Assembly: GCA_018698735.1 (NCBI GenBank)
Contig: JABIPD010000035.1
Location: 1-37,314 of the forward strand
DNA from: Candidatus Jacksonbacteria bacterium
Lineage (GTDB): Bacteria > Patescibacteriota > Patescibacteriia > UBA9629 > GWA2-43-13
DNA length: 37,314 bases
Direction of reading: 5' to 3'
Within the stretch, counting starts at the first letter, position 1, and each line of letters begins with the position of its first letter. Below the pieces are notes generated by a model. The model saw only the letters and a program-made list of their open reading frames with translations, did not search any database and was not told the origin of the DNA. Shown here one piece after another: positions 1 to 22,145 of the stretch. A program made the translations under genes and the position numbers.

Positions 1-3000
1 TCATCTGCCAAAATCCTCATTACTGCTGTTCCATAAAAGCCGTCCTTGTCTGTTTTTGCTGTCCAGGTTGCGCTTTTGCTTGTTCCTGTTGTTATACTAG
101 CTCCTGCATCTCCACCGACTGTTACTGCTAGCATGTATACTGCTGCTCCAGAGCTATGTGCTGCTGCGTTACTTGTATCGTAACCTCTTTCTACTATTGT
201 TAGATCTGTTCCATCGTTTCCTGAATAATCTATTATTTCGCTGTCTATTAATATTTTTCCACTTGCTGGAAAATTTGTCGCCGTTGAAAGTGTCACTGCC
301 CCTGTATCGCTGTCTGTGAGTGTTTCATTTAACGTGACTCCTGCAAGTTGGTAGTACACCGAAATTGTTCCGGTTGCCTCATCGCTATCTGCAAAGTCGT
401 AACCTACCGTAACTACTCCTGCGCTATTTTGACTTGCTGTTACATTTGAAACTACTGGAGCTACATTTACAACATACGTTATTGTGAGGTCTGAAAGTGT
501 TGGGGTTACTGTCCCATCTGAGTTTAAAAACACCTTATACTGATACCACTGGTCGTCGGTTGAATCTGTATGAGTAGAATTAATTGTTTCTCCGCCAGCG
601 CTATCTGTATAGTAATCTCCGGTACTTGTTGGACCAAGCCAATCAGTCCAGGTGCCAGGAGAACCAGTAGAGTCTGGAGCAGTTCTTAATTGAAATTTAA
701 CATCAGCTCCCGATGGCAATGTTTCCGTCCAGGCCATCTGAGTTAGCAAAACACCAGAAGATTCTGTGTCAAAAGCACTTGAAATTAAATTCTGTTCTGA
801 AGTACTATAACCTGAATAATTTATAGTAATATCGTCCAACGTGGAGGTTCCTGCATTGTTTGCATTTGAAGCAAATGAATACTGATAGACTGTGTCATTA
901 CCTTGACCTACTGCATAAAACTTTGTCCCATCAGGTTTTATAAAAATGCTATACAGTGTACTTTCTTCCGAAACAGCAAAAGAGATCGTGTCATATGATG
1001 CAGTAGAAACGTCCCATGGAGTAGATAAAGTATATTGATAAACCGTATCTTCGTTGGAGCCAACGATATAAAGTTTTGTGCCATCTTGCTTAAATTCAAA
1101 ATCTCTAGGTAATCCTTCTTGTGAACTAGCTGCAAAATCTTTACTGTCATAAGAGCCAGTAGAAATATCCCATGCCGTTGAAAGAGAATATTGTTTAATT
1201 CGCAATGAGCCGTTATCAAGCCTGTACATTTTAGTTCCATCAGGTTTAAAGAAAAGCGCACTAGGAGAGCCGCCCTGGCCACTTACGTCGAGACTTTTAC
1301 TTGCATACGAAGCCGTAGACACGTCCCATGCAGAAGAAAGCGCATATTGATAAACTGCATCGCTCGATGTTCCTGCTATATACATTTTAGTACCGTCTAG
1401 GCTAAAGAAAAGGCCTTCGGGTGTAGTCTCTTGAGTTGTTGGTAAAAATGATTTCGAAGCATAAGAAGCAGTAGAAGCATCCCATGGTGTAGAAACTGTA
1501 TATTGATAAACGGTGTCTGAATTTTGTCCAAGCACATACAATTTAGAGCCATCTAAACTAAATGAAAGTGCTCCCGGAGTTGTGTCTTGAGAATTAAGAG
1601 AGGGAGATGCCTTGCTGTCGTAAACCCCAGTAGAAACATACCAATTACTCCCTAACGACACTTGATACTGAACATATCTATCAGTATCTGTAACACATCC
1701 ATTACCTGATATATCTTCTCCAGATGTAATATCTGTACATGATGTATCTGTAAACGCAGTAGCGCCAGACATATTCGCAGCAGAGTCTGTTCGAACTTTT
1801 ACAGATACAGTTGTTGTGCTTGCATCTGTGGTGTTCCAAGAAGCTATACCGTAAACAGAATTTACAGTGGTATCAAGAATTTGAGAGGTAAATATCCCTG
1901 TTGTGGAATACGTCGTTGCAGATGAATAGTTGATAATTATATCATCAAGACTCGTGCTTGATACCTTGTTGGCATTTGTGGCGAGAGAGTATTGGTAGAC
2001 CAAATCACCAACTCCTATCGTGTAAAATTTTGTGCCATCTGGTTTAAAGAAAAGTCCACTGGGGGTTGCTTCTTCTGAGTTGACATCAAAAAACAGGCTG
2101 TCATATGAAGCAGTTGAGACATCCCATGCTGTTGAGAGGGTGTACTGCTCTACATCGTCGGTATTTACCCCTACTACATACATCTTGGTGCCGTCGGGCT
2201 TGAAGGAAAGTCCATTAACGCTTCCTTCCTCTGAACTCGCATCAAAACTTTTGCTATCATATGAGGCAGTTGAGACATCCCATGCTGTTGAGAGGGTGTA
2301 TTGAAAGACCGTATTAGTCCATGATCCTGTTATATACATCTTGGTGCCGTCGGGCTTAAAGAAGAGGCCGAAGGGTGACCCCTCTTCATCGGTCACGCTA
2401 AAATTCTTGCTGTCGTATGAAGCTGTTGAGACGTCCCAGGGGGTGGAGAGAGTGTACTGCTCTACTTCGTCGTCGCTATATCCTACTACATACATTGTTG
2501 TTCCGTCGGGCTTGAAAGAAAGAGTTAGTGGTGAGGCTTCTTCTGAGTTTACATTTTTACTCTTCGAATCATATGAAGCTGTTGAGACATCCCAGGCTGC
2601 GGACAGAGAATATTGATGAACATCATCGCCATCTCTTCCTACAAGATACATTTTTGTTCCGTCAGGCTTGAAGAAGACACCCGTGACAAAGTCTTCTTCT
2701 GCAGATACGTCAGGAGAAGTGACACCGTCATACGCTGCACTTCCAACATTCCAAGCACCTCCAAGCCGGACTTCGTATTGGACATACTGATCGGTATCGG
2801 TAACACAGGCATTGCTTGTGACATCTTCTCCAGAAATTATGTCTGTGCAAGATGCAAAGGCAGTCGCACCCGACATGTTCGCAGCAGAATCACTCCTTAC
2901 TCGCACAGAAATGGTTGATCCTGCAACATCAGTGGAATTCCATGATACATTATCAAAGGTTGAGTTTCCAGTTGTATCAATAATCTGGGAGGTAAATGTT

Positions 3001-7330: not shown

Positions 7331-7370
7331 AGTAATCCCGAATATACAAATCAAGTACAAATATACGAAT
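7331..7370 (-). promoter_or_regulatory. 40-bp promoter-bearing arm, copy A (TCGTAT-N16-TATATT), 12 nt from ATG 7328
   Basis: Minus strand reads attcgtatatttgtacttgatttgtatattcgggattact. It is 35/39 identical to copy D2. Confidence 0.55.
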
Positions 7371-8540: not shown

Positions 8541-8579
8541 AGTAGTCACGAATATACAAATTTAAACAAATATACAAAT
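8541..8579 (-). promoter_or_regulatory. Promoter-bearing arm, copy B (TTGTAT-N15-TATATT), 12 nt from ATG 8538
   Basis: Minus strand reads atttgtatatttgtttaaatttgtatattcgtgactact, followed by ct and then the ATG. Confidence 0.55.
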
Positions 8580-8968
8580 CAGACTTTTTTATTAAGGATA
8601 CGTCTGTACTTAACTCCCTCTCGTGTAAAATATATTAGTATTGCTAATTGGCAGTTCAAAACTCTCAAATATTCTAAAACTTGTTTAATATGTACGTATC
8701 CCATCCTAGGTCTTACCTTTAATTCTAATATTATTTTATCATCAACTATTAAATCCAAAAAATACCTTCCAATACTTTCATTTTTATACGAGAGCTCCAC
8801 ACATTTTTGTGATTCAAATAGAACATCTTTTTCTTTTAACGAAACCTCAAAAGCTCGTTGGTAGTGCTTCTCCTGCATTCCATAACCAAGCTCATTATAC
8901 ACCTCATACGCTATACCTACTATCCTATAACTCAACTCTGGATATATAACCTTTTCATTGTCTATCAT
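8579..8968 (-). CDS. GxxExxY family protein (PD-(D/E)XK nuclease fold)
   Basis: 129 aa. It has an N-terminal IVGIAYEVYNELGYG motif and the core LDLIVDDKIILELK (D...ExK). Size and layout are typical for the family. Confidence 0.8.
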   Translation of the reverse strand: MIDNEKVIYPELSYRIVGIAYEVYNELGYGMQEKHYQRAFEVSLKEKDVLFESQKCVELSYKNESIGRYFLDLIVDDKIILELKVRPRMGYVHIKQVLEYLRVLNCQLAILIYFTREGVKYRRILNKKV

Positions 8969-8998
8969 ATCTTATTGCATATTGAAGCTATGTTTTTC

Positions 8999-9039
8999 CT
9001 ATTTGTATATTTGAACTTGATTTGTATATTCGCGATTAG
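8999..9039 (+). promoter_or_regulatory. Promoter-bearing arm, copy C. It points antisense into the 3' end of the S8 gene
   Basis: ctatttgtatatttgaacttgatttgtatattcgcgattag is 37/40 identical to D2 and ends directly at the S8 stop codon (9040-9042). Confidence 0.4.
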
Positions 9040-11352
9040 TTACCCTCCTAGTTGCACCGCTTTTCTCAGTGCTTTGCTAAAGACAAAAAATTGTTGAAGT
9101 AAATTTCCTGTGCTATTTACTATTTGTACCTGCGGACCGCCTCCGTCTTGTGGGACAGCAAAAATCTCATCGAAGCCATCGTTATTCGTATCCACAGCCA
9201 TACCGCTCAAGCCCGTTCGAAGGCCTGGTACAAATGCTGTAATTTCTTTTTGAAGATTCCCTGAGCTATCGAGCAGCTTTATCGCAGGCGTTTGCCGAGG
9301 AGCAGGATACACAAGAAGCATTTCGCTTTCAAAGCCTTCAAATAATCCAGAGGATAGTGTCATTCCTTTTACAAAGGCAATATCTGATTTTGGAAGAGCC
9401 TCTACTCCACCGAAGGCATTATATATGCGAAGCCCAAATTCTCTGGACCTTGATGCCAAAGCTGCTATTTCGTATATACCATTATTATCTTTATCTAAAA
9501 CTGTTATATCTACCCCAAGCCTACTTGATTCATCGCCAGCAAAAAACTGACTTGTAAGTTCGCCTGTTTCTCTAAATACTCGAATCATTGGTCCGCCGCC
9601 TTTTCCAGCAGCAACAATAATATCATCTTTCCCATTTCCGGTGACATCTGCCGATGCTAAGTTTAATCCTATGCGTGTTGCTTCTGGAAAACCTAAGAAA
9701 GACGAAATCATATTGCCCTGCTGATCAAAAATACGAATTTCGGGGAGGGCACTACTTGCAGGTGCGGTGATTATTTCTTGTACTCCGTCGTTGTCTACAT
9801 CGCCTAACACGACATTCACACCGGCTTTCATTTCTTTGTCGTATGCTAAAAATTCATGCTGCAATACCCCACCATAAGACCAGAGCCTAACCCATGGCTC
9901 AGCCCCTTTGGCAGATGCAGCAACAAAATATGAAGATGAAGAACTTTTCGCTTTTCTTTTTATCGCAGCTGCCTGAAAAACGGACACAGGGGCGAATTTT
10001 TTAATAGAAGAAAGTGTTTCTGCTATATTTAATCTCCCAAATCCAAGCTTACCTATCATATCTTGATTTTGAGCTACAACTGAATCGGAATTATAAATAA
10101 TGTAATCGTAAATTTCTTTTACCGATAAGCCTGGAGCATAACTTTTCACCAAGGCTGCCGCTCCGCTCACCATAGGTGCTGCAAACGACGTTCCGTTCCA
10201 TCCTCCGCTATAGGGCTTTTGCAAATCTGGGATACTTGCATTCCAAATTTGTGTGCTATAAATATTTTCTCCAGGCGCAACCAAATCTACACACGTTTTA
10301 CCAAAACTCGAAAATTCCGAGCGACGGTCTCTTTCGTTAACCGAGGCTACTCCTAGAATCCAATTTTTTCCGGATTTTTTTTCGTCTAAACAGCCAGGAA
10401 AAAGAGGCGTTACATCTAAATCACCGATCCCCTCAGATTCCGTATCTCCATCGTTTCCAACTGCTGCAACGATTACAACTCCGGCATCGTAGGCGTCTTT
10501 TATCGTTGCTTTTAATATATCGTCACTTAAGTGCCCAACAAAACTCATATTAATAACATCTGCGCCATTCTCCTTTGCGTACAATATTGCTTTTACAACA
10601 TCGAGTGTTGTTCCGTGCCCAAGGCCATTCAGAGCTTTAAGTCCCATTATCTGAACTTTATGAGAAATACCCGAAACACCAAGCGTGTTGTTTCCGCTTG
10701 CACCAATAATACCTGCAACAACCGTACCATGAGTAAGTCCCTCTATAGTGTAGCCCTTGCTATCTAATTTAGCTTCGGGGTGATACGTATTATGATTAAA
10801 ATCCCAACCATTTCTGTCGTCTACATATCCATTGTTGTCGTCATCTATTCCGTTGTTGGGTATCTCGTCTTCATTCATCCATATGTTCATTCGTAAGTCT
10901 GGATGGTCTATATCTACCCCCGTATCTATTACCGCGACGATAACGTCCTTGCTTCCTGTTGTAATATCCCAGGCTTCGAATGCTTTAATTTGTTTAAGAT
11001 AATGTTGTTCCGATGAAAATCTATCATTAACCGTCTGAGTAGCAACAGAAAAATTCTCAACATTGTTTGTGTTATATTGAACGCCTCGAGCAGATTTTAG
11101 CTCTTGTGGCTGATATGCAAAATTTGGTTGAACTAACTCAACACCTCTTTGCGACTGCCAATGCAAAATAGCATCTTCTTCAGATGCTATAGCCGAATTA
11201 TAATAGCGGAGCTCTGGAAATGGATTGTTGTGGTATTTAACGAGCAATTCTTTGTAATTAGAAGCAGCCGTATATGCTGGGAATCCAGAGATACTCGCTA
11301 GCGCAAATACAATCACTATAAAAATTTTCAAGCCATTTAAATGCCTTTTCAT
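9040..11352 (-). CDS. Secreted subtilisin-like serine protease (S8) with C-terminal FG-GAP/VCBS-type repeats
   Basis: Signal peptide MKRHLNGLKIFIVIVFALASISGFPAYTAA. Catalytic triad motifs VAVIDTGVDIDHPDL, HGTVVAGIIGA and GTSFAAPMVSGAAAL. Repeats include DVDNDGVQEI, DVTGNGKDDIIVAAGKGGGP and DTNNDGFDEIFAVPQDGGGP. Confidence 0.9.
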   Translation of the reverse strand: MKRHLNGLKIFIVIVFALASISGFPAYTAASNYKELLVKYHNNPFPELRYYNSAIASEEDAILHWQSQRGVELVQPNFAYQPQELKSARGVQYNTNNVENFSVATQTVNDRFSSEQHYLKQIKAFEAWDITTGSKDVIVAVIDTGVDIDHPDLRMNIWMNEDEIPNNGIDDDNNGYVDDRNGWDFNHNTYHPEAKLDSKGYTIEGLTHGTVVAGIIGASGNNTLGVSGISHKVQIMGLKALNGLGHGTTLDVVKAILYAKENGADVINMSFVGHLSDDILKATIKDAYDAGVVIVAAVGNDGDTESEGIGDLDVTPLFPGCLDEKKSGKNWILGVASVNERDRRSEFSSFGKTCVDLVAPGENIYSTQIWNASIPDLQKPYSGGWNGTSFAAPMVSGAAALVKSYAPGLSVKEIYDYIIYNSDSVVAQNQDMIGKLGFGRLNIAETLSSIKKFAPVSVFQAAAIKRKAKSSSSSYFVAASAKGAEPWVRLWSYGGVLQHEFLAYDKEMKAGVNVVLGDVDNDGVQEIITAPASSALPEIRIFDQQGNMISSFLGFPEATRIGLNLASADVTGNGKDDIIVAAGKGGGPMIRVFRETGELTSQFFAGDESSRLGVDITVLDKDNNGIYEIAALASRSREFGLRIYNAFGGVEALPKSDIAFVKGMTLSSGLFEGFESEMLLVYPAPRQTPAIKLLDSSGNLQKEITAFVPGLRTGLSGMAVDTNNDGFDEIFAVPQDGGGPQVQIVNSTGNLLQQFFVFSKALRKAVQLGG

Positions 11353-11377: not shown

Positions 11378-11965
11378 TTATTTTTGATAATACTTATCCT
11401 GTGGCCATTTTATTGGGTTCATACCAATATATTCACGATGGTTTTTAAGATCTTCGTCGTTACGAATAATATGGTCATAAAATCGTGGTTGCCATTGGAA
11501 TGATGATCCGTGATTAGCGCGAATTTGTTTGGTTGAAACAATTTTTATTTGTTTAATAATATCACCAAGAGTCGATCTGTAGAGACGCTTTGGTAAAGCG
11601 TCTTCTTGTTTTTGTTGATCAAGACGCATCACCGATGCGTCTCTACGATCGGACATATTTCGTTCGGTATTCATCGGTAAAACATCATCATACGGACCAA
11701 TATGAATAATAACATGTACATGATTCGGCATAACAACAAAACTATCAATCAAAATATTCGTTCTTACCTCTTCTGTCTTTTTGATTTCCTTTTCAACAAT
11801 CTCACCGACCTCAGTCAGTACTACTTCATCGTCAATTATATTTGATAAAACACATTTCATATCCTTCACACACCATGTGACAAAGTAAAATCCTTCAGAC
11901 GAATAATCATAATGCTGATATCGAGAAGAATTAACTTTATAGGTATTTTTGTATAATTCAGACAT
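11378..11965 (-). CDS. rayT: REP-associated tyrosine transposase-like protein (RAYT, IS200-like Y1 HUH), paralogue 1
   Basis: HUH motif MPNHVHVIIHI and Tyr motif WQPRFYDHIIRNDEDL..YIGMNPIKW. An extended -10 (TGaTAATAT, 11980-11972) lies 6 nt from the ATG. Confidence 0.85.
   Translation of the reverse strand: MSELYKNTYKVNSSRYQHYDYSSEGFYFVTWCVKDMKCVLSNIIDDEVVLTEVGEIVEKEIKKTEEVRTNILIDSFVVMPNHVHVIIHIGPYDDVLPMNTERNMSDRRDASVMRLDQQKQEDALPKRLYRSTLGDIIKQIKIVSTKQIRANHGSSFQWQPRFYDHIIRNDEDLKNHREYIGMNPIKWPQDKYYQK
11579..11646. repeat. GTAG-REP doublet (REPIN-like) inside the RAYT1 coding sequence
   Basis: gtagagacgctttggtaaagcgtct, a 17-bp spacer, then aagacgcatcaccgatgcgtctctac. It is read in frame as RRDASVMRLDQQKQEDALPKRLY. 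Confidence 0.8.
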
Positions 11966-17224: not shown

Positions 17225-17657
17225 AAGAATTTCGGTTTATTAATTACCAACTCGCGAAGAACCTGGCTAAAAGGATCCGGGGCTTTTTAACCGACTCGAT
17301 AAACGAGGTCGACCTTTATGTTAAAAAGTTTCGGTATTTGAGCTCCTTGGCCATATTAAACGACGAGCGGTTGAGAGATATAAGCACAGAGGCATGCCTC
17401 TTATCTTTAACTTACTTTTTGAACCTAGGTTATTGTAAGAAAAAGACTTGAAAGATTGATTACCCGAAGGTGTCACAATCAGTAAGGCCCTATGCTTGCC
17501 CGTGGGAACAAATAATTGCCCCACAAGTAAGCATAGAAGCCAATAGAACCTTTGTACCTATCTCTATACGAACTTGAATAAGTGAGTATTCAATGATACT
17601 CGCATAAACTTTTCATATAATGACTAAAGTTTATGCCAATATCATTATTTTAAACTA
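17225..17657 (-). promoter_or_regulatory. Candidate ~430-nt structured 5' leader of the surface protein gene (if transcribed from arm D1)
   Basis: Several stems are visible: an 11-bp stem 17602-17612/17626-17636, a 6-bp stem 17584-17589/17596-17601, a composite stem 17490-17497/17529-17536 with 17502-17506/17520-17524, and the palindrome agaggcatgcctct at 17388-17401. No convincing ORF is present. Confidence 0.35.
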
Positions 17658-17763
17658 ATCGCTAATATACGAATCAGAAACGAATATACAAATAAACTAA
17701 TTTTTCATGATTTCCAGAGCTTCTATTTGTATATTTGTGCTTGATTTGTATATTCGTGATTAG
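17655..17763. mobile_element. Gene-less 109-bp MITE-like unit: arms D1 (17655-17694, minus) and D2 (17724-17763, plus) back to back with a 29-bp filler
   Basis: Read on the minus strand, D1 is tatttgtatattcgtttctgattcgtatattagcgattag. D2 is tatttgtatatttgtgcttgatttgtatattcgtgattag. The two are 33/40 identical as inverted repeats, and each carries an outward-reading TTGTAT-N16-TATATT. Confidence 0.5.
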
Positions 17764-17898
17764 TCAATTACACCCGCAAATACTACTAGATTTTGCGAAG
17801 AAAGTCAATGCTTTTTAGCGGATTTTTTGCTCTTATTTTGCTAAAAAGTGTATACTCTATCAAAACAGCTTAAAACAAGGACTTTTAAGCTGTTTTTT
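17760..17898 (+). ncRNA. Candidate orphan transcript (~140 nt) from arm D2 to the bidirectional terminator: either an sRNA or an mRNA for a 21-aa hydrophobic peptide
   Basis: The D2 -10 hexamer lies at 17749-17754. Hairpins lie at 17775-17797 (cgcaaa/tttgcg) and 17811-17848 (ctttttagc/gctaaaaag), followed by the terminator stem 17862-17896 with a T-run on the plus strand. A small ORF at 17808..17873 encodes MLFSGFFALILLKSVYSIKTA. Confidence 0.35.
17862..17896. terminator. Bidirectional intrinsic terminator (end of the anti-sigma gene on minus, end of the orphan unit on plus)
   Basis: 14-bp stem aaaacagcttaaaa / ttttaagctgtttt with a 7-nt loop. It is flanked by an A-run and a T-run. Confidence 0.75.
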
Positions 17899-17900
17899 GG

Positions 17901-19361
17901 CTAAAGAATGAAAACACGTTCTTCCTCAACAGGCTCAGCTGGAACTTCTTCCTCCTTATTATCGCCGTTAGAGTCTTCCTCTACTAATGTCTCTGTGGCT
18001 GAATTATTGTCGCTATTCTCTGCTTCTAAAGCGCTGTTATCGGTATTTTCTTCCGTGTTCGCATCTTGTTCAACTAGTAAATCACCACCTACTTCGTTCG
18101 ATGTTTGTTCAGTATTGCTATCAACTTCAGTGTTTTCGGCTGGTAACGCAGAGTCTTCTTCTGTTACCAAATCTACAGCATTTGATTCATCAGAAACTTC
18201 TGGAATAATTAAAATGCCAAGCGATTGTTTGTATTCGTTTAAAATAGATGTTGTTTCTTTTGCATTCGAAAGCTTATCTTGCAGTGTTTGGATTGCATCA
18301 AGCAAGCTTTGCGTTGGTTCTTCTTCTTGTAAAAACACTAATGAATCTGCAATATCTTCTATAAGCTCTTGGGCGGCAGAATTCTGTTCGAGTGCTTCAA
18401 CTGGAGTTAGGGTTGGAATCACTTCTACTGGTTGCTCTGGTAATCCAAACGAAATAGTACTACCAGTGGTATCTATTAATTCTCCTTCTGTAATCTGAGT
18501 TAATGCCTCTATCTCCAATCTAAACTGTTCTGCTTGCTCTTCTGTTAAAAGTGCTTGAGCAAGTGCTGTTGTTGCTTTTTCCACCTTTACTTGCAAATCC
18601 TCTACATGGTCTGCTAGAAATTCTTCTACTTTCTCTTCGTCTTCTACCAAAGCTATCACCGAATCTATACCCGACAAAGAGGATTCGTCTACACCATCAA
18701 GAACCTGTATTACTTCGCCGTCTACTTCTTCTCGAACATCTTCTGAAAGCGAACTTACTGTTTCTTCTATTATTCCTTCTATATGCTGAGATCTTTTGGT
18801 TAAATCTAATGCGACTGCTATTTTTTCGGCTGAATCTTCGCTATCTTCTTTTACTTTTTCTACAGCCTCGTGAGCTATTTGAACCTGCTTTGTTACTTCG
18901 TTTAATGCTTGTTTAACTCTATTCGATGCTTTTTCTGTATCTTCTTCATCTTTTGCCCTAGAAGTAACTTCTTGTAATTCTTCTACCCTTTTAGATGCAA
19001 GTGAAAGTTCTATTTTTGCTTTTTCTTCAATAGAAGGAGTAATTGCAACCTGCACGTTCTCTATAGTCCTTTTTATTGGATATAATCTATCTCCCGGCAA
19101 ACTCCCCATTGTAGCACCAACAGAAGCAACCGAACTTCCAAGAATAATAACTCCCAACAAAACAACCGCTAACGAAGGTTGCATCCAACTAAATGGATTA
19201 ACTACAACACCTACTCGTTTAGCATTATTTGAGTGGATTTTTTTATCAGCATTATTAAAAGACTCAAAATGGACCTGAGCCATAATATTTTTGCGAGATG
19301 AAGCCTTCCATTCTTGAGATGGAGTAATTTGCTGTAGTTTTTTGAATTGCTTCTTGTTCAT
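17901..19361 (-). CDS. Single-pass membrane protein, anti-sigma-factor-like (resembles DUF5667-type proteins), with a long acidic coiled-coil ectodomain
   Basis: TM segment SLAVVLLGVIILGSSVASVGA is followed by LPGDRLYPIKRTIENVQVAI. The gene starts 9 bp downstream of the sigma factor gene. Confidence 0.65.
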   Translation of the reverse strand: MNKKQFKKLQQITPSQEWKASSRKNIMAQVHFESFNNADKKIHSNNAKRVGVVVNPFSWMQPSLAVVLLGVIILGSSVASVGATMGSLPGDRLYPIKRTIENVQVAITPSIEEKAKIELSLASKRVEELQEVTSRAKDEEDTEKASNRVKQALNEVTKQVQIAHEAVEKVKEDSEDSAEKIAVALDLTKRSQHIEGIIEETVSSLSEDVREEVDGEVIQVLDGVDESSLSGIDSVIALVEDEEKVEEFLADHVEDLQVKVEKATTALAQALLTEEQAEQFRLEIEALTQITEGELIDTTGSTISFGLPEQPVEVIPTLTPVEALEQNSAAQELIEDIADSLVFLQEEEPTQSLLDAIQTLQDKLSNAKETTSILNEYKQSLGILIIPEVSDESNAVDLVTEEDSALPAENTEVDSNTEQTSNEVGGDLLVEQDANTEENTDNSALEAENSDNNSATETLVEEDSNGDNKEEEVPAEPVEEERVFIL

Positions 19362-19370
19362 GCTTATTGC

Positions 19371-19931
19371 TTATTCTAAATCTTGATCTTTGCGAATGGC
19401 CAGTTTAAGGGCTTTTATAGCCCTGTGCAAAAGAACCCTACAGGCGCCTTTTGTTCTGTCCATTATTTCTGAAATCTCTTGGATGGTTAAACCCTCAACA
19501 TAGCGCAAAAGGATAATATCTCTATAATCTTCGGTTAACGAGTATATCCCCTTCTCTAATAGAAGACGTAATTCATCGAAAGATATTTCTTCGTCTAAAT
19601 GAGGGTCTTTACTAGCGAGAATTTCGCTTAAATCCTCATAGTTCACTGCTGTTCGCTTTTTGTTTGTTCGGTAATAATCTATAACCAAGTTTCTAGCTAT
19701 TCTATACAAAAGAGCACGAACGTTCTTTACGGAGTTCCCACCTTTAATATATGCCCATGTTTTTAGGAAAACTTCACTCGATAAATCTTCGGCTTCGTGC
19801 TGATGAGAAACTTTGTAAAACACAAATCTATAGATATCATCTATATATCCATCATAAATCTGGGCAAATGCTTCTGGGTCTCCTGATTGAATCTTAAGGA
19901 GTAAGAATTTATCTGTAATCTTTCGTTTCAT
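19371..19931 (-). CDS. Sigma-70 family RNA polymerase sigma factor, ECF-like
   Basis: Region 2 (YDGYIDDIYRFVFYKV..EDLSSEVFLKTW, RIARNLVIDYYR) and region 4 (LRYVEGLTIQEISEIMDRTKGACRVLLHRAIKALK) are present in 186 aa. Confidence 0.85.
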   Translation of the reverse strand: MKRKITDKFLLLKIQSGDPEAFAQIYDGYIDDIYRFVFYKVSHQHEAEDLSSEVFLKTWAYIKGGNSVKNVRALLYRIARNLVIDYYRTNKKRTAVNYEDLSEILASKDPHLDEEISFDELRLLLEKGIYSLTEDYRDIILLRYVEGLTIQEISEIMDRTKGACRVLLHRAIKALKLAIRKDQDLE

Positions 19932-20795: not shown

Positions 20796-20799
20796 ATGA

Positions 20800-20916
20800 G
20801 TAGTCGCTAATATACAAATAGATCACAAATATACAAATTCGAGTAAATATATGAACAAGAAAGTAACCCTGCTTTCAATTTGTATATTTGTGCTTGATTC
20901 GTATATTCGAGAACAG
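20800..20916. mobile_element. Gene-less 117-bp MITE-like unit: arms E1 (20800-20839, minus, 13 nt from the lexA ATG) and E2 (20877-20916, plus) with a 37-bp filler
   Basis: Read on the minus strand, E1 is aatttgtatatttgtgatctatttgtatattagcgactac. E2 is aatttgtatatttgtgcttgattcgtatattcgagaacag. Confidence 0.5.
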
Positions 20917-20955
20917 TTTCATTATACCAAACAAATACCGCACACACAAAACACG

Positions 20956-21587: not shown

Positions 21588-22145
21588 TTATTTAAAATAT
21601 TTGTCCTGAGACCATTTTATTGGGTTGATTCCGATATAATCACGATGGGACTGAAGGTCATGATCGTTACGGATGATATGATCATAAAATCGTGACTGCC
21701 ACTGAAAGGAAGGATTGTGATTGTTACGAATTTGTTTTGTTGAGACAATTTTTATTTGTTTGATAATATTACCAAGATTTGCCGTGTAGAGACGCTTTGG
21801 TAAAGCGTCTCCTTTTTTTTGATTATTAAGACGCATCACCGATGCGTCTCTACAGGAAGAGTCGAACATAGGACCTATATGAATAATAACATGCACGTGA
21901 TTTGGCATCACAACAAAAGAATCTACACGAACATTTTTTCTCACCTCTTCTGTTTTTTTAATCTCTTTTTCAACAATCTCTCCAATTAAACTTAATACTA
22001 TTTTATCATCCACAACCTTAGACAACACGCAGTTCATATTTTTTACACACCATGTTACAAAATAGAACCCCTCAGAAGAATAGTCATACTGGGAATAACG
22101 AGCCGATGGGATTCGGTATTGGTTATTGTATAGAAATTGATTCAT
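21588..22145 (-). CDS. rayT: REP-associated tyrosine transposase-like protein (RAYT), paralogue 2
   Basis: Same motifs as paralogue 1 (MPNHVHVIIHI, WQSRFYDHIIRNDHDL). A perfect extended -10 (TGtTATAAT, 22160-22152) lies 6 nt from the ATG. Confidence 0.85.
   Translation of the reverse strand: MNQFLYNNQYRIPSARYSQYDYSSEGFYFVTWCVKNMNCVLSKVVDDKIVLSLIGEIVEKEIKKTEEVRKNVRVDSFVVMPNHVHVIIHIGPMFDSSCRDASVMRLNNQKKGDALPKRLYTANLGNIIKQIKIVSTKQIRNNHNPSFQWQSRFYDHIIRNDHDLQSHRDYIGINPIKWSQDKYFK
21786..21853. repeat. GTAG-REP doublet inside the RAYT2 coding sequence
   Basis: Both arms are identical (25/25 and 26/26) to the RAYT1 in-ORF copy, while the spacer differs. It is read as CRDASVMRLNNQKKGDALPKRLY. Confidence 0.8.

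Follow-up and report, generated by a model that had tools for sequence, protein, structure and literature searches.

The window analysed here is a contig stretch of 37,314 nucleotides from a Candidatus Jacksonbacteria bacterium, a Patescibacteria MAG of 0.88 Mb in 118 contigs with 40% G+C. Near its centre, genes for an ECF sigma factor, a DUF5667 anti-sigma protein and a surface protein lie on the minus strand, and a short palindromic unit, which we call unit D, separates the anti-sigma gene from the long untranslated leader of the surface-protein gene (Table 1). An inverted-repeat search of the window resolved unit D into two arms of 41 nt each, 83% complementary, on either side of a 29-nt spacer, in agreement to within 1 nt with the unit that a sequence-only reading had placed at 17655-17763. 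The window contains three inverted repeats of at least 30 nt within 150 nt, the longest of 41 nt, and no repeat of this kind was found in any of 30 shuffles of the window. Each arm consists of two tandem copies of the 13-mer ATTTGTATATTYG, repeated with a 19-bp period, and then a conserved tail, CGnGAyTAsT. When up to two mismatches were allowed, the 13-mer TTTGTATATTCGT occurred 16 times in the window, compared with 1.7 expected copies, and 0 of 100 shuffles reached 16.

Table 1. Features at unit D and at related units of the window (positions are those of the window; contents of the arms are listed with each arm).
Feature	Position	Strand	Description
Solo arm	7331-7370	-	12 nt before ATG of epimerase gene
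Full-size relative	8541-9040		arms 8541-8580 (-) and 9001-9040 (+); encloses GxxExxY gene 8579-8968
Surface-protein gene, 1354 aa	ATG 17224	-	downstream of D1 across 430 nt
Untranslated leader	17225-17653	-	downstream of D1
Arm D1	17654-17694	-	28/31 consensus positions; 13-mers 17681-17693 and 17662-17674; -10-like TATATT 17664-17669; tail 17654-17663; points at leader and surface-protein gene
Spacer of unit D	17695-17723		29 nt; without similarity to spacers of this genome's other five gene-less units
Arm D2 (mirror arm)	17724-17764	+	31/31 consensus positions; 13-mers 17725-17737 and 17744-17756; TATATT 17749-17754; tail CGTGATTAGT 17755-17764
Predicted start of D2	near A17762	+	
Sigma-70-type promoter TTGACT-17-TAGTAT	17808-17780	-	from consensus scan; reads into unit D
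Terminator hairpin	17862-17896		14-bp stem, T-runs on both strands; ends anti-sigma gene and any D2 transcript
DUF5667 anti-sigma gene	17901-19361	-	upstream of unit D, convergent with D2
ECF sigma gene	19371-19931	-	upstream of unit D
Unit E, gene-less	20799-20917		between conserved lexA promoter and lexA ATG 20795
lexA promoter TGGTATAAT	-10 at 20921-20926	-	outside unit E

Arm D2 faces 137 nt that, as the sequence-only reading had stated, end in a terminator (a hairpin and T-run) and are followed by a gene convergent with D2. That reading had called the stretch gene-less. It is not empty: the anti-sigma terminator, a second hairpin and a minus-strand promoter of the sigma-70 type, TTGACT-17-TAGTAT, account for it, and unit D begins ~9 nt past the predicted start of this promoter. 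We compared the site, at the genus level, with Parcubacteria GW2011_GWA2_43_13 (hereafter G001), which represents a sister genus in the same family. The corresponding place holds TTGACG-17-TATCTT both in G001 and in another relative (L282), and a 13-nt block in the -35 region, AAAAAGCATTGAC, is identical in L282. An exact match of this length arose in 3 of 2000 shuffles by a longest-exact-match statistic chosen post hoc, and gapped local alignments of the promoter region to G001 and L282 were not significant. Because significance is confined to the post hoc exact-match test and does not extend to the gapped local scores, we grade TTGACT-17-TAGTAT as probably the native promoter of the leader.

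The leader itself is conserved. About 130 nt of its 3' part (about 17270-17400) align to the sister genus with a local score of 74, compared with 21 +/- 2.4 for shuffles, and conservation across genera is seen on the minus strand over 17225-17540 (L249 3300-3714; L282), for example in GAGGCATGCCTCTGTGCTTA, CAAGGAGCnCAAATACCGAA and CCGGATCCT. A leader hairpin at 17490-17536 differs in stem sequence among genera and retains its pairing. The leader had no Rfam match and is a candidate for a new cis-regulatory RNA. For the window as a whole, Rfam at gathering thresholds returned nothing; the only matches were chance ones of the microRNA-hairpin type on the palindrome.

Unit D belongs to a family of such units. 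Other paired units, whose absence would have counted against the sequence-only reading, exist in this genome, which holds about 23 arms. Six gene-less outward-facing pairs lie on contigs C11, C18, C23 and C26 and, in the window, at units D (17654-17764) and E (20799-20917); the six spacers, 13-39 nt long, bear no relation to one another. Three further pairs, at 8541-9040 of the window, C81 2502-2981 and C5 956-1424, enclose GxxExxY (TIGR04256) genes of ~130 codons' product length (~130 aa). The remaining arms are solo or are paired with a decayed partner. On contig C11, rpsJ and rplC, normally adjacent, are 228 nt apart (1619-1846); an intrinsic terminator comes first in this gap and a gene-less unit second, with 3 nt left between the unit and the rplC ATG, and the S10 operon of this genome appears split.

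The gene enclosed by the full-size relative in the window matches TIGR04256 with E = 3e-31, and its product is a PD-(D/E)XK GxxExxY protein of ~130 aa, not a known transposase. Among 80 loci fetched from arm-bearing genomes, every one of the five interiors of about 390-420 nt has a gene for a GxxExxY protein, and one interior of 206 nt (L192) retains a truncated GxxExxY N-terminus comprising the first ~30 codons. Gene-less units and units enclosing TIGR04256 genes share the same outward-facing tandem-repeat arms of ~40 nt, and we refer to them as the GxxExxY-cassette palindromic element family, a family defined in this analysis and not in the literature. The window GxxExxY protein is 47-61% identical to cassette proteins with TATATT arms from other classes and only 27-36% identical to the three paralogues of its own genome, all associated with different types of arm; judged by these identities, arm type tracks nuclease clade. 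The gene-bearing partner at 8541-9040 has the same arms as the miniatures, and its GxxExxY nuclease may mobilise the units. Derivation of the miniature spacers from cassette interiors was considered and rejected: no such remnants were seen in this genome, in G011 (a genome of another family) or in the SRP193066 genome, and a gene remnant was found in L192 only.

Two related arrangements were encountered. A GxxExxY domain with arms of the CGCAGAC type lies in frame and stop-free inside an 858-aa RecG-like helicase ORF (L124; G011 C8 5972-6313). At C81 268-805, inverted repeats of 38 nt with 95% complementarity surround a 98-aa ORF (MMHEYFVYILTNKENSVLYIGVTNNLERRLSEHK...), assigned to the GIY-YIG type by motif alone, and here too a small putative nuclease gene lies within an inverted-repeat box.

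When one genome per species was scanned for the exact arm pattern, at least 116 contig stretches carried it; they belong to many classes, with hosts among the Doudna-, Staskawicz-, Moran-, Kuenen- and Falkowbacteria, the Microgenomates and others. The distribution is patchy: arms are present in 4 of the 31 nearest relatives and in 27 of 401 genomes of the class. The 80 fetched loci contain 172 arms, and 136 of these (79%) form 68 outward-facing pairs, compared with two convergent pairs, with spacers that range from 0 to about 130 nt. Neighbouring codons occupy regular positions. In 54 gene-less pairs from other genomes, a start codon falls within 30 nt of one arm only in 41 cases, of both arms in 8 and of neither in 5, and the distance from arm to start codon is typically 12-18 nt. 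On the mirror side, the stop codon of a co-directional upstream gene lies 5-16 nt from the TATATT of the arm in 28 of 39 cases, and the mode distance of 8 nt puts this stop codon inside the arm tail. With a start codon on one side and an upstream stop codon on the other, the typical unit thus fills the stop-to-start gap. Unit E and the family overall fill a gap of this kind, from stop codon or -10 box to start codon. Unit D, unlike most copies, does not and stands away from codons, at distances of 137 nt (upstream stop) and 430 nt (ATG).

Conservation is as good in mirror arms as in front arms, and this holds for the tail too, although the search pattern did not cover it. Since gene-less mirror arms are the family norm (the 41 of 54 pairs above), D2 needs no gene; it is the mirror arm found in all such units, and not the promoter of a hidden gene. 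The perfect consensus of D2 and the folding of the 137 nt downstream into three hairpins that end in the terminator (-35.3 kcal/mol, z = -4.96) could instead be taken to mean that D2 expresses a small RNA of ~130 nt, or the 21-codon ORF at 17808, within 17765-17900. Searches of 400 class genomes and of the sister genus, however, returned no homologue of this stretch, and Rfam no match; the anti-sigma terminator and the minus-strand promoter explain its content, and mirror arms without a gene are normal in the family. We give a hidden D2 product scarcely any credence.

The arms vary between genomes. G001 uses TTCGTAGATT and G011 uses TTCGTAAATT...TAYATT, and the -10-like hexamer keeps TAnnnT (T1, A2 and T6) in every variant (TATATT, TAGATT, TAAATT and TACATT). 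The 13-mers are conserved and the stretches between them drift, and both 13-mers of an arm co-vary between genomes (TATATT with TATATT, TAGATT with TAGATT). This co-variation suggests that a protein, possibly the nuclease, reads each repeat; a repeat-binding protein would account for it no less well than separate recognition of a -35 and a -10 element. None of the readings discussed below accommodates this co-variation neatly. In the genome SRP193066_co2_68 (L141, L179, L190, L193, L196 and L198), the arms have three 13-mer repeats, and gene-less spacers carry a GC-rich hairpin of ~40 nt (GTCATTGCGAG...GCAATC) in either orientation, with two such hairpins in L198. Arm pairs can therefore carry different cargo.

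The sequence-only reading had proposed a search for empty sites by comparative genomics, and we found such sites in both directions. First, G001 keeps the gene order lexA-ECF sigma-anti-sigma-long leader-surface protein and has no arms at the sites of units D and E. The lexA promoter regions of the two genomes are orthologous, with a local score of 25 compared with 12.2 +/- 2.2 for shuffles, 0 of 500 of which reached 25. When the flanks of unit E are joined, they read TGGTATAAT-N6-ATG, that is, TTTGGTATAAT-GAACAT-ATG. The usual promoters of this genome have TGnTATACT 6-10 nt before the ATG, a near-leaderless layout, and on paper the removal of unit E recreates this ordinary spacing between -10 box and start codon. 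An example of an empty-site junction is TGGTATAATGAA|CATATG. Second, galU in G001 is unit-free and has the layout hairpin-TATACT-N13-ATG, the hairpin being a terminator; in this genome a homologous hairpin is followed by TATAAT, a 105-nt unit and the ATG, and the joined flanks (TATAAT-N9-ATG) match the unit-free layout. Third, in the reverse case, a 150-nt unit lies between divergent G001 genes whose orthologues on contig C110 of this genome lack it and start 4 nt apart. Their start codons (C110 9984-9989) read CAT ATAT ATG, and at this distance each promoter must lie within the coding sequence of the other gene. Finally, five of the seven arm-bearing genes of G001 are without arms in this genome, and one cassette, before xerC, is common to both. 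A metagenome scan for relatives returned only G001-like ones.

Eight G011 units, taken from seven contigs, can be aligned along ~100 nt with the spacer included; their similarity stops abruptly at both ends, and they occur in both orientations relative to the neighbouring gene. No target-site duplication flanks the six gene-less units of this genome or the eight units of G011. The six spacers of this genome, unrelated and variable in length, give no sign of recent copy-and-paste.

Such unconserved arm positions, with five of seven G001 arm-bearing genes armless here and the D, E and galU sites empty in G001, argue against a bidirectional promoter or operator evolved by the host, whose four 13-mers would be sites for a regulator or sigma factor of a housekeeping regulon. 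So do the G011 units, which recur whole, spacer included and with sharp ends, at unrelated loci; the identity of arms in distant classes combined with their patchy occurrence; the bracketing of nuclease genes by arms that co-vary with them; and the stop codon that faces most mirror arms. A host operator would suit the genes downstream of arms in this genome, which are mostly housekeeping (rplC, rplJ, secA, infC, pheT, galU and lexA), as well as the variable spacers, the lack of target duplication and the conservation of 13-mers amid drifting stretches, which implies selection on protein binding. We nevertheless consider it highly improbable.

Two more specific regulatory assignments were tried and rejected. 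The 13-mers were suspected to be LexA boxes of an SOS regulon, since lexA carries a unit and lexA operators of other Patescibacteria are direct repeats containing TTCG; but the genes downstream of arms are rplC, secA, pheT, infC, galU and the like, and the period is 19 bp, not 11. An ECF sigma promoter serving the neighbouring sigma/anti-sigma pair is at odds with the arms, which lack a motif of the AAC...CGT type, occur genome-wide and are also present in genomes that lack a match in the anti-sigma search.

The 130 nt upstream of lexA at 80 Patescibacteria loci (L013-L092) were of separate interest. In many of them, direct repeats lie between the -35 and -10 elements or overlap with these, such as GTTCGGT-N4-GTTCGGT, TTTCGTA-N4-TTTCGTA and GTTCT-N6-GTTCT, often with a DnaA-box-like TTATCCACA upstream, and these direct repeats are candidates for lineage-specific SOS boxes. 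None was evident at the lexA gene of this genome, where unit E separates the promoter from lexA. In the G001 lexA leader (L013, about 2910-3000), a different palindrome, AAAGTAAAAATTAAAGAGCAAAAAG ... CTTTTTACTCTTTAATCTTTACTTT, occupies the same interval between promoter and ATG, so this site has been occupied by units of different families. This genome also has a second palindromic family, with units of 120-140 bp at C16 4044-4185, C24 6915-7050, C42 4177-4298 and C67 1952-2077. Its arms are tandem AATTAGAAATT repeats that end 2-12 nt before start codons, its cores are conserved, and its 11-mer is present in 131 copies in this genome with no more than one mismatch.

The sequence-only reading had also seen outward-facing promoters in the arms, and the arms do look like such promoters. 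The arm signal is a -35-like TTTGTA-N17-TATATT with TG directly upstream of the -10, and the conserved tail, yGyGAtTACT, places a T-A step 7-8 nt downstream of the hexamer, where a start is expected. Start codons stand at a fixed short distance from the hexamer in dozens of copies; at lexA, secA, galU, rplC and two epimerase genes they follow TATATT by 12-13 nt, and these arms would give leaders of ~5 nt. From these signals, we infer promoter activity of the arms, which probably bring their own outward-facing promoters to the sites that they enter.

The chief alternative is an inserted element with arms that are not promoters: a transcript from the native promoter would form an RNA hairpin at its 5' end or between cistrons, with consequences for RNase III binding or cleavage, message stability or insulation of neighbouring transcription units. 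Intact promoters of the generic kind just outside the mirror arm do read into the units, namely TGGTATAAT at lexA, conserved with G001, TATAAT at galU and TTGACT-17-TAGTAT at unit D; those outside unit E and the galU unit may, being intact, still drive their genes through the unit. The sequence-only reading had predicted a read-through transcript with a long stem that might be an RNase III site or insulator. As RNA, unit D does fold as a single long interrupted stem (-30.2 kcal/mol, z = -4.95), and the genome encodes RNase III (233 bits), but the stem lacks the compensating changes expected of a selected hairpin. Complementarity between arms arises only through the match of each arm to the consensus, and the inter-repeat stretches differ between the arms of a unit without compensation and are sometimes unequal in length, a pattern that speaks against selection for an RNA hairpin or an RNase III site. 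Although conservation is equal in front arms and in mirror arms that have no gene to drive, and arms contact stop codons as regularly as start codons, a hairpin would leave the AUG 2-3 nt behind a 40-bp stem with no Shine-Dalgarno sequence. Moreover, solo arms precede genes at the same distance as paired arms (7331-7370 in the window; rplJ on contig C16), and T1, A2 and T6 of the -10-like hexamer are kept in every variant. We judge this RNA-level role unlikely.

Our preferred reading, which we hold to be somewhat probable, is that unit D represents, in miniature and without a gene, a palindromic insertion element of Patescibacteria that appears not to have been described and whose full-size form carries a GxxExxY nuclease gene. 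We found no description of such elements in the literature on GxxExxY proteins, on Patescibacteria promoters and leaderless genes, or on CPR MITEs.

Under this reading, insertion of unit D would have separated the native promoter from its target, and D1 would have become the promoter of the 430-nt leader and its gene. D2, if active, would fire head-on into the native promoter and stop at the two-way terminator after ~130 nt. The predicted D2 start (~17762, plus strand) and the native start (~17773, minus strand) would face each other within ~11 nt, so that the two promoters would exclude each other and D2 may interfere with the native one. At most, D2 transcription would serve as an insulator against read-through from the sigma/anti-sigma genes.

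For the family as a whole, we tentatively propose, as a possible course of events, that a selfish Patescibacteria element mobilised by its GxxExxY protein inserts between the -10 box or stop codon and the start codon, that the outward promoter and start region at each end restore expression, so that the element survives before essential genes too, and that its miniatures have rewired the promoters of a considerable fraction of the housekeeping genes of such reduced genomes. The genes so targeted would be leaderless or have very short leaders, and the target itself would be only a few nucleotides long. Insertions before secA, galU and lexA could persist because the element supplies its own outward promoter. 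If this proposal is correct, the orphan GxxExxY family (TIGR04256) would gain a concrete biological context, and there would be a new class of mobile element whose enzyme is other than a known transposase. A portable palindromic module would supply promoters to core genes (lexA, secA, galU and ribosomal protein genes), and would do so in ultra-small bacteria with little regulation and near-leaderless genes. For annotation of Patescibacteria, arms would not be read as dedicated regulatory sites, nor mirror arms as orphan promoters of small RNAs.

Several known systems share parts of this architecture. Free-standing homing-endonuclease genes, such as seg and mob of phage T4, are wedged between conserved genes. 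Like these, the cassette is a small nuclease gene placed exactly between conserved genes, absent in relatives and apparently harmless; unlike the cassette, whose nuclease activity is putative, the T4 genes are without long inverted-repeat arms and gene-less miniatures. The units also resemble REP/REPIN-RAYT systems: in both, short repeats form inverted doublets scattered through intergenic DNA, one small gene of single-copy type, flanked by the same repeats, is linked to them, and the whole is probably domesticated or semi-selfish. The arms here differ from REP sequences in being AT-rich tandem 13-mers, not GC-rich hairpins, and the associated protein is of a different fold class. This genome has RAYT genes of its own; the Y1_Tnp-like genes of the window (11378-11965 and 21588-22145, both weak matches) are not flanked by TATATT arms, and the inverted repeats near them are hairpins of the GTAGAGACG type.

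The sequence-only reading had likened unit D to Correia-type MITEs. In the published account of Correia elements (CREE), one end or both can supply promoters, the hairpin binds RNase III, and there is evidence that the elements are mobile (Snyder et al., 2009; PMC2649163). They are reported only from Neisseria, with their own 26-bp repeat, a conserved core, a target duplication and a possible IHF site, and have no known gene-bearing partner (PMC2649163). Like CREE, the units described here are palindromic, intergenic, ~100-150 bp long and present in many copies, and they show presence and absence between genomes; both have terminal inverted repeats, which can provide end promoters in CREE and are promoter-like here, and both would form an RNA hairpin if co-transcribed. 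Unlike CREE, our units have arms of tandem ATTTGTATATTYG 13-mers, variable cores, a Patescibacteria host, no target duplication and a nuclease-bearing full-size form, and they insert at stop/start or -10/start junctions.

The broader comparison with MITEs holds in function, given multi-copy units of ~100-120 bp, their presence and absence at orthologous sites, and a gene-bearing partner with the same arms; identity with a Correia element does not, by host, sequence or target duplication. As in MITEs, terminal inverted repeats bound a short gene-less unit and are shared with a longer gene-bearing form; copies are dispersed and have defined ends (six pairs in this genome, eight units in G011 and 68 pairs in other genomes); orthologous empty sites exist at the level of genera (D, E and galU in G001; C110 in this genome); miniatures outnumber full forms (~6 to 3 here, ~16 to 1-2 in G011); and a truncated intermediate exists (L192). 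The points of difference are that the enclosed gene encodes a GxxExxY protein, not a known transposase, that the spacers are not cassette-derived, and that no target-site duplication is seen at the units here. Unit D is palindromic and MITE-like, its ends resemble promoters and its partner bears a nuclease gene; it is functionally similar to Correia elements and distinct from them in kind.
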